A DNA stretch of 62,576 bases, the filler included, from Pirum gemmata (lineage: Eukaryota), in NCBI GenBank assembly GCA_002812295.1. It is 20 parts of 20 records of this genome, joined end to end, with 100 filler letters (N's around TTAATTAATTAA, not from the genome) between each part and the next. Parts side by side here need not be neighbours in the genome. Positions count along the whole stretch, not along the records: positions 21,689 to 24,566 come from PDIN01004269.1; 19 more parts are not named here. The stretch is one strand, 5' to 3'. Below, in pieces: positions 13,373 to 24,666 of the stretch. The notes below the pieces were generated by a model, which was given only the letters and a program-made list of their open reading frames with translations, was not told where the DNA came from and searched no databases. Every line of letters starts with the position of its first letter. Within the stretch, counting starts at the first letter, position 1. Made by a program: the position numbers and the translations under genes.

Positions 13373-14228
13373 TTATTGTAAGCTGGCAAGTTCTCTTTTA
13401 AATCTAAAGTACATAGTAATTCCTCTTATGAAAGTAAACCAACCGAATAAAATCAGTGCCCATATTACCCAAACCATAACCTGTTCATTAGCTCCATCAT
13501 TAACATGCTCTTGTGCATTTTTGATTTGTCTATTTCTGATATCAAAAGAGAGGCGTATTAAACCCAAACCAAACCCTGAAGTGGCACCACAACGTCCAGC
13601 CAAAGTACGACTGAAGAAATAAGAAAATAGGAAACCAATCCAATTTAAAAAGAAGGCAACGAAAAATGTAACGCAAAATGTCACATCATCACCAAGAGGG
13701 ATACCGAATCCAGGAACTACTGCCTCACTTACATACATGTAATCACCACTATTACTATGTGTCGCACTTTCTTCTACATTGGTTTCTTCGTATTCATCAT
13801 AGGTTGGAAGTTTGCCTGTTGTGTTGGCAGTATCATAGGCTGGAAGCTCATCTGAGAATAGAAATAAAAATTTTAAAACAGTAAGTACAAAATTTGGATG
13901 AAACTAATATCATAAGTATAAAAAGTAAATAAGTATAAATAGTAAAGACTTTATACTAAAAACCCCAAAAAACCCCACCCAGTAAATTAAAAAAAATAAA
14001 TAAACATTAGTAAAAAAATAAAATAAAAAAATAAAAAAACAAAAACTTACTTGATTCAGAAGCTTCGCTGGATATAACTACAGTTATATTATCATTTGTA
14101 CTTTCCGGTACAACCAAAGGGGTTGATTCATTATCATTATCATTATCATTTTCAAGTTCTAATTCTGTATCATGAAACTCAACTTCAACGTCAGAATCTT
14201 CGGTTGGAAGAGATTGGTAGCTAGGCAT
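13373..14228 (-). CDS. NDFIP: NEDD4 family-interacting protein (NDFIP/Bsd2 family); 2 exons, 14228-14051 and 13851-13373, about 218 aa
   Basis: A phase-1 GTAAGT...CAG intron (14050-13852) joins the two ORFs. LPAY and LPTY PY-type motifs precede GDD..F..TFFVAF.LNWIGF......T.AGRCGATSGFGLGLI and a third TM ending FIRG...Y, as in NDFIP1/2. Confidence 0.9.
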
Positions 14229-14512
14229 TTGATATTTTGCTAAAAATGACTGGGCAACTATTATTTGTTATCGTTGTTGTTGTTATTACTTTTGTTTTTG
14301 TTTTTGTTTTTGTTTTTGTTTTTGTTTACAAGCAAAAGGGAAAAGTATACTAAAACGAAAACTAGATAAATTATTTTTAAAAAAAATGAAAAAATAAAAA
14401 ATAAAATATAAGTATTAATAAGTACGTAATTGCATAAAAATTAATAAAAATTAAAAAAAATAAAAAATTCACAAAATGTAAAAGTTAGGCAATGAAATAT
14501 CATGTTTATATA

Positions 14513-16982: not shown

Positions 16983-18383
16983 ATGTTGATATTTACTGTT
17001 TCAAAATACTTAACGTTTTTTTCAAAATTTGAATTAATCATTATTTATTTATTAATACTGCAATGCAATAGTAAAGATATTCACAGAGATGGGGTAAGAA
17101 TCATTGAAAATACCGATCCTAATGCTAATTTTTTCCCAGGTAGTTCATTGTTGAAATATAATATTATGTAAATTGGTTTCTTATTAATCGGTTTATTGCA
17201 AAAATAATTTCTAATATTTATGTTCTTTGTAGACGGTTAGGTTAAAATGTATTATAATAATTATTATTAATAATATTCAAATATTGAATGACTGTTATTA
17301 ATTTTCATAAAATTAATTTGGAATTCGACTTTATAGTTATCTTAATTAAAACTTAAGTGTTATTTTTGTTTTAAAAAATAATGAATAATTTACATTTTTT
17401 AATAATTGTTAAATTATTATTCTTTCAGTGTTATTTTTATTGTTGTTATTGATGAAGTATAGTATAATGTAACCCTGACTCTAACCCTAAACTTAATCCT
17501 AACATCAACCTCAGCCTTAACCTTAACCCTAACCTTAACCTTAACCTTACCCTAACCTTTACTCTTAACCTTACCCTAACCCTTACTCTTACCCTAACCA
17601 TTACTCTTAACCTTACCCTAATCCTTACTCTTAACCTTACCCTAACCCTTACTCTTATCCTAACCCTAATCTTAACCCTAACCCTAACCCTAACCCTAAC
17701 CCTAACCCTAACCCTAACCCTAACCCTAACCCTAATCCTAATCCTAATCCTAATCCTAATATTTAATTTAATATAAAAGGTGATAATGATCCGATTCTGA
17801 GTGATTTTACGGTCGAATCTCCAGATACACCTTTTGTTCGACTATATCAAACTGAACAATTTTCCTATAACAAAGTTNCCCTAACCCTAACCCTAACCCT
17901 AACCCTAACCCTAACCCTAACCCTAATCCTAATCCTAATCCTAATCCTAATATTTAATTTAATATAAAAGGTGATAATGATCCGATTCTGAGTGATTTTA
18001 CGGTCGAATCTCCAGATACACCTTTTGTTCGACTATATCAAACTGAACAATTTTCCTATAACAAAGTTGCCTGGGACTTAGCTGCCAATGAAGCTAATCT
18101 TTTTTTTAGACACCAAAGTAAGCCAGACGATGGACCCTGGGTAAGCTCGTTTAGGATATCAGGTCAGGCACTAGCAAACTCATTTGCGATAACGCGAGAG
18201 AAAGTGCTAATTGGTAGTTATAATCAGTTGGGCAGAGATGATCAAGTTATTGATTTGGAGGTAAATGGCAATGTTTGTGCTCGAGTTGCAAAAAGTGGTA
18301 GTGGTCGTACTAAAGTTTGTATAGGTGATCTTTTGGAAAGAATTCAAACTTTAGAAAACATAATACAAGATTTACGAAATTAA
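16983..18383 (+). CDS. Spliced, probably secreted protein of about 189 aa resembling a bacterial tail-fibre-like beta domain with a C-terminal coiled coil; exons 16983-17139 and 17971-18383
   Basis: The phase-1 donor CCAG|GTAGTT and acceptor AAAG|GT join in frame. Exon 2 (missed by the ORF track) is stop-free for 137 codons: GDNDPILSDFTVESPDTPFVRLYQTEQFSYNKVAWDLAANEANLFFR...SFRISGQA...DLLERIQTLENIIQDLRN. Exon 1 has a hydrophobic LIIIYLLILQCNS segment. Confidence 0.7.
17470..17950 (-). repeat. Intronic (CCCTAA)n/(CCTAAT)n and 24-bp variant arrays, including a 191-bp tandem duplication of the acceptor and exon start
   Basis: 17780-17878 is repeated exactly at 17971-18068. Confidence 0.85.
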
Positions 18384-19671: not shown

Positions 19672-21935
19672 AACCTCTAAATATTTTTAGATTGGAATAC
19701 ATTGGTATACTTCATTATATAGCTGGGGATGCAGAAATTAATTAAATCAGTACACAATAAATTTTTGATAGAGGGGATTGTAGGAATTATTGTACTGGTA
19801 TAGCTGGGAATGTAGAAACTAAATCAGTACACAACAAACTTTTGATAGTTCTACGATGTTGCCGGATAACTAAAATCTAAACCTTAATTGATATTTTGAG
19901 TTTTTTGCCATGTATTTTACAATGCTACTAGGAATTTTTGAAGTGGCATTTAAATTAATAACTAAACATTTAGAGGCAAACTTTGAAATTTTACTGTATC
20001 ATAAATTTCCAAACGAAAAACACTCTTCCTTTGTAAAGATATTGTTCTTCCTTTGTAAAGATATTGTTCTTAATGTTTTATTGTTTAAAAAAAAAATAAT
20101 AATTATTATTATATATATTATAAGGATTTTGTGCATATTGTTTTTTTTTGTTTTTGTTTATAAAATAAAGGACATTAATATTGTTTTATATTTTTAATTA
20201 AAATACAGAGTAAGGGTTAGGGTTAGGGTTAGGGATGGAAATCAAGCACATGTGGTAAACAAAGGTGGTGGGCGAAGGTGGTGGGCGATGGCGGTGGATA
20301 TATTATGATGATAAACATAATATTAAAGAAAAAGAGAGTTAGAGATATTAATATTGATAATGATATCGGTCATGACTATGATAATGGGTTAGAATTAGGA
20401 GGTTAGGGTTAGGGTTAGGGTGATAAGGATAAGGATAAAGATAATATTAATGATCATGATCAAGATAATGATAATGATAATAATAATGATAATGATAATT
20501 ATATGTATATAATGAAAATGATTAGCAATGAGACTAGAATGATAATAATAATATATATTAATCTTAACGAAAATAATATTGATAATATTTGTAATATAAA
20601 TTAAAATGAAAATAATAGTTATAATTAATGACAATGATAATGTTAATGGGCTGTTTAATTAATGTCTAAATATAGTAGTCTAAATTGTTTACATTTCTTT
20701 TTACCAGTAATATTTCCAAGCTAACATGTTGAATTTTCAAAATTGGAAGTTTGATAAAAATAATTTCAAAAAATTAATGGACTCTTCCAATCAACTATCG
20801 ATAACTATATAAATAAGGAGAAAAAGAAAAGTAATTATACATGAAGAATTGAAATTCAAAATTGGATAAAGCTTTATTATAAATCCTCTAAAAAATTTCA
20901 ATAAAACAGTAATGGCAGAAAAAGACTAACTGGATATTTGAATGAAAATAGTAAAGATTATAGGGAAATCAACAAAGAAGACATAGCTATTATTATTAGC
21001 TAGTATTATATCGCTAACCTAGCTAGCTATGATAGTATTATATTACCTCTAACATAGCTAGCTAGTATTATATCTCTAAGTTAGCTAGCTAGTATTATAT
21101 CTCTAAGCTATAATTGAACTTTTTATAATTTGGTACGTTTATTTCGGTTTTGGAACTGGATACATGTATCTATAGTCTACTGGTAGACCTATCACAGGCT
21201 GCTATATGTATGATACCAAAGGAATTGGTGCCAACGTTTTGTTTTTTAACTGGAATGATCAGTTTTCTAACACCCGTAAGTAGGCTATACCAGTTCAGTT
21301 GTTTTGTCATCATAAAATAAACAATAAATAGTTCCAAATCAATACAGTATAAATCCATTTAATTTAATTTGGTATATTTAATTATCTATTTATTGATTTA
21401 AAAATGTCAATTTAAAGATTATAACAACTATTATAACCCTCCAAATAAATATTTAGAGTGTCAAAATCAATGAAAAGCACGATAATGTGATCCTTGAAAT
21501 TTTCGAACATCATAAATTTTTTTTTTTAATTATGTAAATCATAGTATAAAAAAAGTAGGATGTTTTTTTTTTTTTTTTTTTTTTTTTTNNNNNNNNNNNN
21601 NNNNNNNNNNNNNNNNNNNNNNNNNNNNNNNNTTAATTAATTAANNNNNNNNNNNNNNNNNNNNNNNNNNNNNNNNNNNNNNNNNNNNTATTATTATTAT
21701 TATTATCATAAGCATTATTATCATTATTATTTAATAAAATATTTATCACACTTATTTCTGTAATATAATGATAGTTCAATATATAAGAATAATTGTATAA
21801 TATAATTATACTATTACATATCATTATCATTATCATTATCATTATCATTATCATTAATATCATTATTATCATTATTATCATTATCATTATCATTTAATAT
21901 ATTATTCATCACATTTATTTCTATAATACAATTAG

Positions 21936-23650
21936 GTAAAGATGAAAATGTTCTTAAATGTTCTGTATGTGAAGATAATCATAAAAATGTTGATGGTACT
22001 TGTACCCCCTGCCCAGCAGGTTGGTTTGCTAACGGTGGGGATAGTTGTATATATGGTCCTTGTTCATTTGATCCTTGTTTAAACGGTGGTATGTGTGATG
22101 ATTCAGGCACTGCTTCTACACATACTTGTAATTGTGTTAGTGGTTGGCTTGGTTCTGAATGTCAAACTGATATAGATGAATGTACTACTGGAACACATAA
22201 TTGTGTAAATGGTGAAATGTGTGTTAATGAATTAGGTAGTTGGGCCTGTCAACCATGCTTAGAAAACGAATATATTGGGGTTGGTAATGTGTGTACTATT
22301 TGTAATCAAGTACAATCACTGTGTGAAAATGGGTTTAATTCAAGTCGTTGCGTAGATGTATCTACTAATCTACAACGTTGTACTAAATGTCGAACTGATT
22401 ATTATGCTAATTCTGTTGGTGTATGTGTTAAGTGTGAAGCTGGTTCTTATTGTGAAAACGGTAATAAAAAGGTTTGCCCTGAAGTTTTCCAATGTCCGAA
22501 TGGAGTTCTTGAACAGTGCAGTAAGGCTGAGTATTGTGCTGGTGGGAATTCTATTGCACAAGCTTGTACTAAACAAATTAATTGTGATGTATCTGGTAGT
22601 AATTGTTTACTTAATGTTACAAGTCATATCGAAGGTTTGTTTTGTGAGGTTTGTTTACCAGGTTATTTTGTTGATGGTGATGGAGTTTGTGTTAAATTAA
22701 TTAATGAATGTGTGGAACAAATGGGTAGCTTGTGCAATAATAATGACACTTTTTGTGTAGATACTCAGAATAGTTATTATTGTGCAAAATGTAGTGAGGG
22801 TTATAACATATCTATGAACGGTACTTTAACGCGTAAACCTAATAAACAAGGGTTCAATTTTACAGGTGAATGTCAAGTATTAGATTTAGCTAATTCAAAT
22901 ATTACTGTGTTGCCGAATAATAAATTGTTTAGTGGTTATTCCGAACTAAAATTCTTAGATTTGACCCAAAATCAGATTAAATCTACCCCGTCTGGAGTGT
23001 TTAATGGGATATTTGAAGATCAAAGTGATTCTGAATTGTTACTAGATACTGAAACTAAATGCTCCATGTATGGTTTTATTTTGGATCAAAACAATGTGTT
23101 GATTAAAAAAAAAGGGGTAGAATATGATTATTTATATAATTGTAGTAATTTATATTTTAATGATAATAATATATTTAGTTTAGAAAAAGGGTTGTTTGTA
23201 CTTTTTGAAAAATTGTTCGAGGTTAGTTTTTCGAATAATCAAATATTATCGTTAGAGAATTGGGAGAATTATTTTTATAATAAGGGCGAGAAAATCACAG
23301 TTTTGGATTTTTCACACAATAGTATCGCTAATATTAGTATTTTCCAAAGTTATTTTTTAAATTTAGTTAAGTTAGAATTACAATTTAATAATATAATGGA
23401 GTTAGGGGTCAACACTTTTCACAATTTAGCCAAATTGCATTATTTAGATATCAGTAATAATGTTATTAACAATTTAATTAAAAATACATTTTTGTTATTT
23501 GATTCAAACAAGAATATGACTTTATTATTAGATAATAACAATGTTAAATGTTGTGGTAATAGTTATTATGAATTATTCGACTTAAAAACTAAACAGTTTT
23601 ACACCAATTGTTATAGTGAAAACAGCAACAACAACAACAACAACAACAAC

Positions 23651-23682
<32 letters not shown>

Positions 23683-24327
23683 TAATAATAATACTATTAA
23701 TACCATTGATTTAATAGAACATTGTGAAAGTCATTTAGCATTGGGAGTACAGGATAACAAAAATAATTATACTATTGGTATTATTTTTGGCAGTGTAGTA
23801 GGAGCTGTTTGTTTTATTGCNTTGGTGTTATTGCTTACGTGATATATAAACGTAAATCACAAAGTAAAGATAGTTTAAATGGATTAAGTGCGAATGAGTT
23901 TGTTATGGGTTTGGACCATCCAGTAGAATATATGGATATGAATACTAATTCACTTGATTTTGAACAAACTGAACCGAACAAAACTAATGATAAGAATGAT
24001 AAAAATAATGATAAGAATGATGAATATATGAACCATTATAATTTACATAATAATTATGATCATGCTAGTTTTGTTCAAGATACTTGTGAAAATGTTAATG
24101 TTGAATACAGTGAATGTGTTGATGATGGTGTTGTTATTGCCAAGTACCCTAAAGTTTTAAATGAAAATGATAATCTGGAATATGCAGACCTACAAATTAA
24201 CAATGCTAATAATGATGTTGGTGATAATTCAATCGAGTATTCAGACCTCCATCTTAATAATAATAATGTTGTTGGTAATGATGATATTGTTATTAATAAT
24301 AAGATGAATGAAGTTGATCATGTATAA
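21936..24327 (+). CDS. Single-pass receptor: Cys-rich/EGF (including Ca-binding EGF) repeats, LRR block, TM, Tyr-motif cytoplasmic tail; 5' exons missing
   Basis: Acceptor TAG at 21933-21935. PCLNGGMC...CNCVSGWLGSEC, DIDEC....HNC...EMCVNELGSWAC, LxxLDLxxNxI LRRs, TM IGIIFGSVVGAVCFI..GVIAYVIY then KRK. The two listed ORFs join at the single N (23821). Confidence 0.85.
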
Positions 24328-24666
24328 TATGAATAACTACAAGGCAATAATACTAATAATGTTGTTGTTAATAATTGAGTCGAGTATTCAGACCACTATG
24401 ATAATAGTAATATTGTTGACAATATTATTAATAATGTTATTGATGTTGTATTGTAGACTTCAATAATAATAAAGATGATGTTGATGATAGGGTTTGATAA
24501 AAAACATTTATGTAGAAGAAAAAAATAAAAAAAAATAAAATAAAAATAATAATAATAATGATAATANNNNNNNNNNNNNNNNNNNNNNNNNNNNNNNNNN
24601 NNNNNNNNNNTTAATTAATTAANNNNNNNNNNNNNNNNNNNNNNNNNNNNNNNNNNNNNNNNNNNN

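Follow-up and report, generated by a model that had tools for sequence, protein, structure and literature searches.

The DNA analysed here (the window, 62,576 nucleotides of the Pirum gemmata assembly) consists of 20 pieces, mostly of ~2.9 kb, separated by identical spacers of 44 Ns, a 12-base linker with stops in all frames and a further 44 Ns (e.g. 21589–21688 and 24567–24666). Its G+C content ranges from 22 to 37% in 2-kb bins. The pieces are unlinked, so the order of genes along the window says nothing of their order in the genome, and no gene-neighbourhood reading of the receptor described below is possible. The receptor gene occupies one such piece, with the spacers at both ends, and has an open frame of ~630 + 170 codons (Table 1). 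Its 5' end is missing. The signal peptide and the upstream exon(s) are absent from the piece and the first in-frame Met is residue 52, within an EGF domain.

Table 1 Features of the P. gemmata receptor gene, with positions counted along the window.
Feature	Position	Strand	Basis and remarks
Contig piece carrying the gene	21689..24566	.	Bounded by spacers
Probable splice acceptor AG (21934–21935) and start of phase-1 last exon	21934..21936	+	Sequence, inferred
Cys-rich ectodomain: EGF, calcium-binding EGF, CxxC furin/TNFR-like repeats	21938..22792	+	Pfam, PDB match, Cys map
EGF	22061..22147	+	PF00008, E 4.8e-4, just under cut-off
Calcium-binding EGF	22169..22267	+	PF07645, E 1.4e-8, above cut-off
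LRR block 1, short, Cys cap at each end	22871..23062	+	PF12799, E 3.5e-5, below cut-off
LRR block 2, Cys cap at end	23141..23611	+	PF13855, E 3.2e-10, above cut-off
Poly-Asn stalk, 22 residues, AAC/AAT microsatellite	23627..23692	+	Sequence
Single transmembrane helix, then basic stop-transfer KRK (23848–23856)	23768..23856	+	Hydropathy
Cytoplasmic tail, 159 aa, stop TAA at 24325–24327	23848..24327	+	Frame 23827–24324
VEYMDM, Tyr28	23923..23940	+	Sequence; sole YxxM; 3/4 SHP2-ligand features
DEYMNH, Tyr60	24019..24036	+	Sequence; degenerate unit, neither ITIM nor YxxM
VEYSEC, Tyr87	24100..24117	+	Sequence; Cys at +3, not ITIM
AKYPKV, Tyr100	24139..24156	+	Sequence; YxxPhi, basic +2, no acidic -1
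LEYADL, Tyr112	24175..24192	+	Sequence; ITIM consensus; 4/4 SHP2-ligand features
IEYSDL, Tyr131	24232..24249	+	Sequence; ITIM consensus; 4/4 SHP2-ligand features
Decayed copy of 147-base duplication (first copy 24160–24297)	24307..24444	+	103/138 bases identical

The Cys-rich N-terminal half (14.5% Cys) had its best PDB match in Notch EGF (E 1.5e-15), and the second LRR block matched IGFALS, LRRC15, LRRC32 and TLR3. The ends of the two LRR blocks carry similar Cys caps (14/46 identical, E 1e-4), all of which are intact. The two Cys-capped blocks (22871–23611, + strand) recall multiple-cysteine-cluster Toll ectodomains. Two database searches with the ectodomain yielded 5 matches among 3441 candidates and 22 among 3811, each with no more than generic EGF/LRR likeness at 22–40% identity, and none was found among five viral and 100 metagenome candidates. 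Its best ESM Atlas match, a SLIT3 fragment cluster (0.90), shares only 134 features and serves as a lead only. The tail matched no Pfam family at E 0.05, hence no TIR or kinase domain. The EGF-LRR single-pass receptor with a kinase-less, TIR-less tail that had been proposed from the sequence alone was therefore recovered by Pfam and by the joined frame described below. A single-sequence fold prediction (mean pLDDT 32.5) was discarded.

In the assembly, the reading frame shifts at a single N (23821), the remainder of the helix, the KRK and the tail lying in another frame. We compared the contigs of four sequencing runs (X1–X4) over 23697–24470, with 24 of the 146 pieces listed. Of seven runs listed, three contain the stretch; they represent three samples from as many studies, and no run is recorded as RNA. 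The N was covered by three of the four runs, in one contig each, X4 lying outside the join. All three covering contigs insert seven letters behind 23821 and bridge more than 31 letters on either side of it, which places the tail in the ectodomain frame and makes ectodomain, helix and tail continuous. The earlier proposal that the tail frame is joined to the membrane helix at this position thus held in every covering run. With the seven missing bases counted, the helix comprises ~27 uncharged residues (mean hydropathy 2.1 left of the N and 2.0 right of it), and the order of helix and KRK in the joined frame puts the tyrosine motifs of this single-pass protein on the cytoplasmic side.

X1 is possibly the assembly's own source, whereas X2 and X3 are other samples from other studies. 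X2 supplied one contig (23697–24247), as did X3 (23726–24394), the latter running from the helix through tail and stop without a joint; RNA status for X3 is a guess only, and the compared stretch is intron-free. X2 and X3 have in common four differences at 23739–23786, within the membrane helix or immediately outside it. Each of the four changes a residue and is absent from both X1 and the window. Their tails match the window tail. Because they differ left of the N yet agree in the tail, the assembly is possibly chimeric at this point, with sequence from one copy on the left and from the other on the right. Single Ns also occur within pieces at 17878, 26526, 37715, 40710 and 60950, and are probably gaps of unknown length, as demonstrated for 23821. 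Near-exact local duplications lie around single Ns at 17767–18383 (a 39-codon stretch at 17767 and again at 17958) and at 40206–40657 (a 65-codon stretch at 40206 and again at 40463); both are probably assembly overlaps.

Pfam searches of the other pieces identified a NEDD4/Bsd2 (NDFIP-type) protein, a STELLO glycosyltransferase, a multi-pass membrane protein with CBM_1 repeats and Kazal proteins. The NDFIP/Bsd2 (NEDD4 adaptor) gene (13376–14267, - strand) carries PY motifs and has at least two exons, and the closest Atlas clusters to its exon are chordate (0.92, 0.90), followed by fungal (0.89). The STELLO-family gene is a 733-codon open frame (206–2404, + strand). An intronless-looking gene (27949–29379, - strand) encodes a 477-aa protein with a signal peptide, three CBM_1 (fungal-type cellulose-binding) repeats and ~7 hydrophobic stretches with no Pfam match, and is a candidate cellulose/chitin-sensing GPCR-like receptor. 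CBM is not mentioned in the available part of a survey, published in 2025, of the GPCRs found among relatives of animals (PMC12716839). At 42272–43790 (+ strand), a two-exon-looking gene encodes a single-pass protein in which Cys-rich repeats and Kazal domains are combined with a short tail. Frames at 37957–38736 (- strand) combine a coiled coil with CCHC-like zinc knuckles, gave no Pfam match above cut-off, and resemble a LINE ORF1/gag-like retroelement fragment. A further 18 window frames gave nothing above the Pfam cut-off and no kinase or SH2 fragment, Rfam had no match to the window, and exact look-up of five window proteins in a protein collection retrieved none. The mix of genes in the window points to an opisthokont, and likely to a unicellular holozoan such as an ichthyosporean.

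The receptor tail is acidic and Asn-rich (32 Asp + Glu, 32 Asn) and contains eight tyrosines. All motifs named in the sequence-only reading were found in the tail frame, although their labels fared differently: LEYADL and IEYSDL fit the ITIM consensus and VEYMDM is a YxxM, whereas DEYMNH (His at +3) and VEYSEC (Cys at +3) fit neither description. Units are spaced 19–49 residues apart, and Tyr131 lies 19 residues beyond Tyr112. Such a spacing is at the short end of the range for paired ITIMs. No strict ITAM (YxxL/I-x(6-8)-YxxL/I) was found in the tail; one relaxed match (Tyr100–Tyr112) arises only if Val is allowed, and the ITAM reading was rejected.

Motif frequencies were compared with those of control tyrosines drawn from 16 other window frames, bearing in mind that all motif P values treat duplicated units as independent, though they are not. 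The ITIM consensus, (S/I/V/L)xYxx(I/V/L), taken as in the sequence-only reading, matched twice in the tail (shuffle P = 0.046) and at 15/180 control tyrosines (Fisher P = 0.16). The single YxxM had a shuffle P of 0.23. A Glu directly before Tyr was far more frequent, occurring at 5/8 tail tyrosines compared to 12/180 controls (Fisher P = 0.00016, shuffle P = 0.00007). The pattern [VIL]-E-Y-x-[DE] was present four times in 159 tail residues, compared to none in 5166 control residues and none in 100000 shuffles, although the pattern was derived from the tail, which makes its P value circular. The four units have only 8–15 bases in 21 in common, with differences at synonymous positions, and the amino-acid pattern is kept. 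Retention of a pattern with different codons suggests an old duplication with constraint on the protein.

High-affinity SHP2 ligands have an anionic residue at -1 and hydrophobic residues at +1 and +3, libraries favour A/S/T/V at +1, and the SHP2 N-SH2 domain requires an anionic +2 (PMC12878756). Scored on these features (anionic -1, small/hydrophobic +1, anionic +2 for N-SH2, aliphatic +3; PMC12878756), two of the eight tail tyrosines, those of LEYADL and IEYSDL, carried all four, compared to 0/176 controls. Two further tail units carried three, as did 5 of the 176 control tyrosines. The shuffle P value for two four-feature units was 0.00018, or 0.019 if the related pair is counted once, in a test devised after the tail had been seen. 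The proposal of SH2 docking therefore fared unevenly, two units fitting SHP2-type preferences closely and the loose ITIM consensus lying near chance. Docking of PI3K p85, also proposed, found no backing: it depends on one YxxM, expected by chance in 23% of shuffles, and the SH2 inventories of five ichthyosporeans, as far as the source text extends, include no p85 or PI3K label, although a p85 may be among their unlabelled SH2-SH2 proteins (PMC4342544).

The same tyrosines could be unphosphorylated YxxPhi sorting signals for AP-2/AP-3 in an endocytic or scavenging receptor that does not signal through SH2 domains. Four of the eight tail tyrosines fit YxxPhi, AP-3 has an acidic preference, and sorting would require no tyrosine kinase. 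YxxPhi was, however, not enriched (shuffle P = 0.09), fitting 49/180 controls as well. The enriched feature was instead Glu at -1 with an aliphatic residue at -2, even where no Phi stands at +3 (VEYSEC), and the tail contains no NPxY or dileucine motif. Sorting also does not need a signal repeated five- to seven-fold. Protist LRR membrane proteins with tail sorting motifs do exist, those of Trichomonas BspA being of the dileucine/NPxY types (PMC2843621). Taken together, we regard sorting as an improbable explanation for the tail as a whole. One unit, AKYPKV, is a candidate AP-2 sorting signal, and it alone may serve sorting alongside signalling.

The tyrosine units have multiplied by tandem duplication, as had been proposed. 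No codon shuffle in 100000 reached the identity between the two halves of the duplication (103/138; maximum 83). The decayed unit previously noticed after the stop, near 24379, is part of this larger duplication. The decayed half holds two broken units (24322–24339 and 24379–24396), so the tail once had ~7 Glu-Tyr units, and is interrupted by in-frame stops at 24325, 24334 and 24376.

X1 contained two tail versions of similar depth (185 and 226), one identical to the window and the other with 23 differences in 303 bases, which are either alleles or paralogs. The second copy has an in-frame 84-base skip (28 residues) that deletes VEYSEC, and carries VEYMNM in place of VEYMDM (YxxM kept) and VEYAKL in place of LEYADL. 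Both of these units thereby lose the anionic +2 (Asp to Asn and Asp to Lys, respectively), which counts against the docking proposal. In another X1 contig (record 5), the 24325 stop is replaced by Glu and the protein extends to the next stop, three codons on. X3 retained the 24325 stop. Variation in unit number was thus seen as the duplication, as decayed units and as a second copy that lacks one unit and reads through the first stop.

Such turnover could mark a decaying or freely drifting gene, whose units would have arisen through slippage within an AT-rich, low-complexity tail and would have no present function. Among the listed changed codons between copies, 22/24 were non-synonymous (14/16, 4/4 and 4/4). 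For the second copy (14/16, with 17 of its 23 differences listed and the other six probably near DEYMNH and AKYPKV) this compares with a neutral expectation of 0.74–0.81 (P = 0.15–0.34), and its Glu, Tyr and +3 residues of three units were unchanged among the 17/23 listed differences (P = 0.10, not significant). These changes appear compatible with neutral drift. The three stops in the duplicated half, the copy-variable stop, the 28-residue deletion and the lack of detected homologs point the same way, and duplicated units inflate the motif statistics. Against drift, the long open frame is read as one frame in all covering runs, the Cys-rich N-terminal half has kept its caps intact, the 84-base skip preserves the frame and the older units retain their motif despite synonymous differences. 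Disordered tails also commonly drift around fixed motifs. We consider drift without function slightly less probable again than sorting.

Homologs of the tail were sought widely. None was present among 724 longer candidate proteins or 115 metagenome candidates, and a search of 1.84 billion representatives gave one match, a moth repeat protein (P0008), which proved spurious as the match runs through a Cys-rich EYSQC repeat. RM2-type proteins (see below) were not among the tail matches. A third explanation is that the gene is a receptor tyrosine kinase (RTK) that lost its kinase domain or is spliced to it, the units being left-over juxtamembrane phosphorylation sites of a decoy or co-receptor. 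The ectodomains of ichthyosporean RTKs use EGF, TNFR and LRR modules and turn over quickly by shuffling and gene disruption, and Capsaspora has a 40-gene LRR RTK family (PMC4342544). The piece ends 239 bases past the stop, leaving room for a distant downstream exon, and holds one donor-like site (23852–23862). Nevertheless, kinase-like sequence was absent from those 239 bases in every frame, the X2 and X3 contigs cross the donor-like site without a joint and X3 retains the stop. In addition, three AATAAA signals follow downstream (24468, 24524 and 24534), and the Pfam accessions of the 22 longer ectodomain matches included no kinase family. A lost or distant kinase is in our estimate the least probable of the three, although an origin by kinase loss would be compatible with a scaffold receptor, and an RTK family with this same ectodomain may be present among the architectures of PMC4342544.

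We lean, by a small margin over doubt, towards a kinase-less phosphotyrosine scaffold receptor whose tail would be phosphorylated in trans, with Tyr112 and Tyr131 docking mainly a tandem-SH2 phosphatase of the SHP type. The Cys-rich/EGF and LRR ectodomain would bind an outside ligand or a partner receptor, and the resulting clustering would allow a separate tyrosine kinase, either of the Src family or an adjoining RTK, to phosphorylate the Glu-Tyr units in the tail, which is acidic and probably disordered. A tandem-SH2 tyrosine phosphatase from the PTPN6/11 (SHP) family would in turn dock on the Tyr112–Tyr131 pair, with the remaining units binding further SH2 proteins, so that the receptor would act as a signalling scaffold or brake. 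The number of units varies with duplications in tandem, deletions that keep the frame and shifts of the stop codon.

If the host is an ichthyosporean, the partners are to be expected because Src is listed in 5/5 ichthyosporeans surveyed and SH2-SH2-PTP proteins in 4/5 (PMC4342544). Creolimax has a PTPN6-family phosphatase and active Src, and the SH2 preferences of unicellular organisms may differ from human ones, as noted for Creolimax Src (PMC5876402). The ichthyosporeans studied lack Syk and Jak (PMC4342544). A unicellular precedent comes from Monosiga, in which the disordered tail repeats of RTKB2 are phosphorylated by Src and bound by an SH2 domain (PMC3584944). The immune character assigned to this design in the sequence-only reading has nothing beyond the LRRs in its favour, and the receptor could just as well sense host tissue, neighbours or its environment.

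The overall design resembles CD300f (PMC7247439), FcoR and Alr, which are type I proteins without a catalytic domain whose long tail carries ITIM-consensus tyrosines in pairs. In CD300f, PI3K-binding motifs accompany the ITIMs, and its SHP binding has been shown (PMC7247439), whereas the likeness of the receptor here is at motif level only. Alleles of Botryllus FcoR differ in their tyrosine motifs, Hydractinia Alr proteins are candidates, and ITIM receptors have been traced back to cnidarians (PMC12065747, a review). All three are animal proteins with Ig-type ectodomains, in contrast to the EGF/Cys-rich and LRR ectodomain here, for which no homology was found. The closest parallel in a unicellular holozoan receptor is RM2 of Monosiga brevicollis RTKB2, with tandem acidic tail units in which Tyr follows acidic residues and which are a shown Src substrate and SH2 ligand (PMC3584944). 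RM2, however, spans ~80 residues behind an active kinase, fits the Src SH2 consensus (EEVYEAI) and was not found outside its family (PMC3584944). The P. gemmata tail has no kinase, its units are short and their fit is to SHP-type SH2 domains.

At single sites, the units are like gp130 pY757 and the PD-1 ITSM, both kinase-less, with Glu at -1, Ser/Ala at +1 and an aliphatic residue at +3, a likeness of motif only (PMC12878756). The SHP2 site of gp130, entered in the SHP2 ligand table as V-E-pY-S-T-V, has V-E-Y-S in common with one tail unit (PMC12878756), although gp130 needs JAK, which the ichthyosporeans studied do not have (PMC4342544). Toll-like receptors similarly have an LRR ectodomain, with two Cys-capped blocks, but the tail here lacks TIR. 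The LRR/EGF RTKs of unicellular holozoans likewise place EGF, TNFR-like and LRR modules before one helix, followed by the kinase domain that this tail lacks (PMC4342544). Judged by these comparisons, the receptor is not a TLR, an RTK, an ITAM receptor or an RM2 protein. Its tail carries a tyrosine motif shaped like the SHP docking sites of animal inhibitory receptors, making it a candidate ITIM receptor.

Tandem-SH2 phosphatases (PTPN6/11) have been reported from ichthyosporeans and choanoflagellates (including PMC4342544 and PMC5876402). ITIM-type receptors of unicellular holozoans were not found in the literature consulted, a weak absence given that the main Monosiga kinome paper lay outside its scope, and the available parts of PMC12911872, PMC12716839, PMC11286789 and PMC3753549 do not cover AP-2 preferences, CBM receptors, ITIMs or p85. 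Domain-based catalogues of kinases, phosphatases and SH2 proteins would miss kinase-less receptors with short docking motifs.

At present, this is one orphan gene with motif-level evidence, of a known design in a new variant. A bolder possibility, which we hold to be unlikely, is that the inhibitory ITIM-to-SHP receptor module known from the immune cells of animals already operates in one of their unicellular relatives, where a fast-evolving kinase-less LRR receptor, with copies differing in the number of docking units, would recruit a tandem-SH2 phosphatase and damp tyrosine-kinase signalling. If true, receptor tails would gain and lose docking units through duplication and moving stops, two peptides would provide a cheap direct test of binding by a pre-animal SHP phosphatase, and the gene would represent the first candidate receptor for the pre-animal PTPN6/11 phosphatase.
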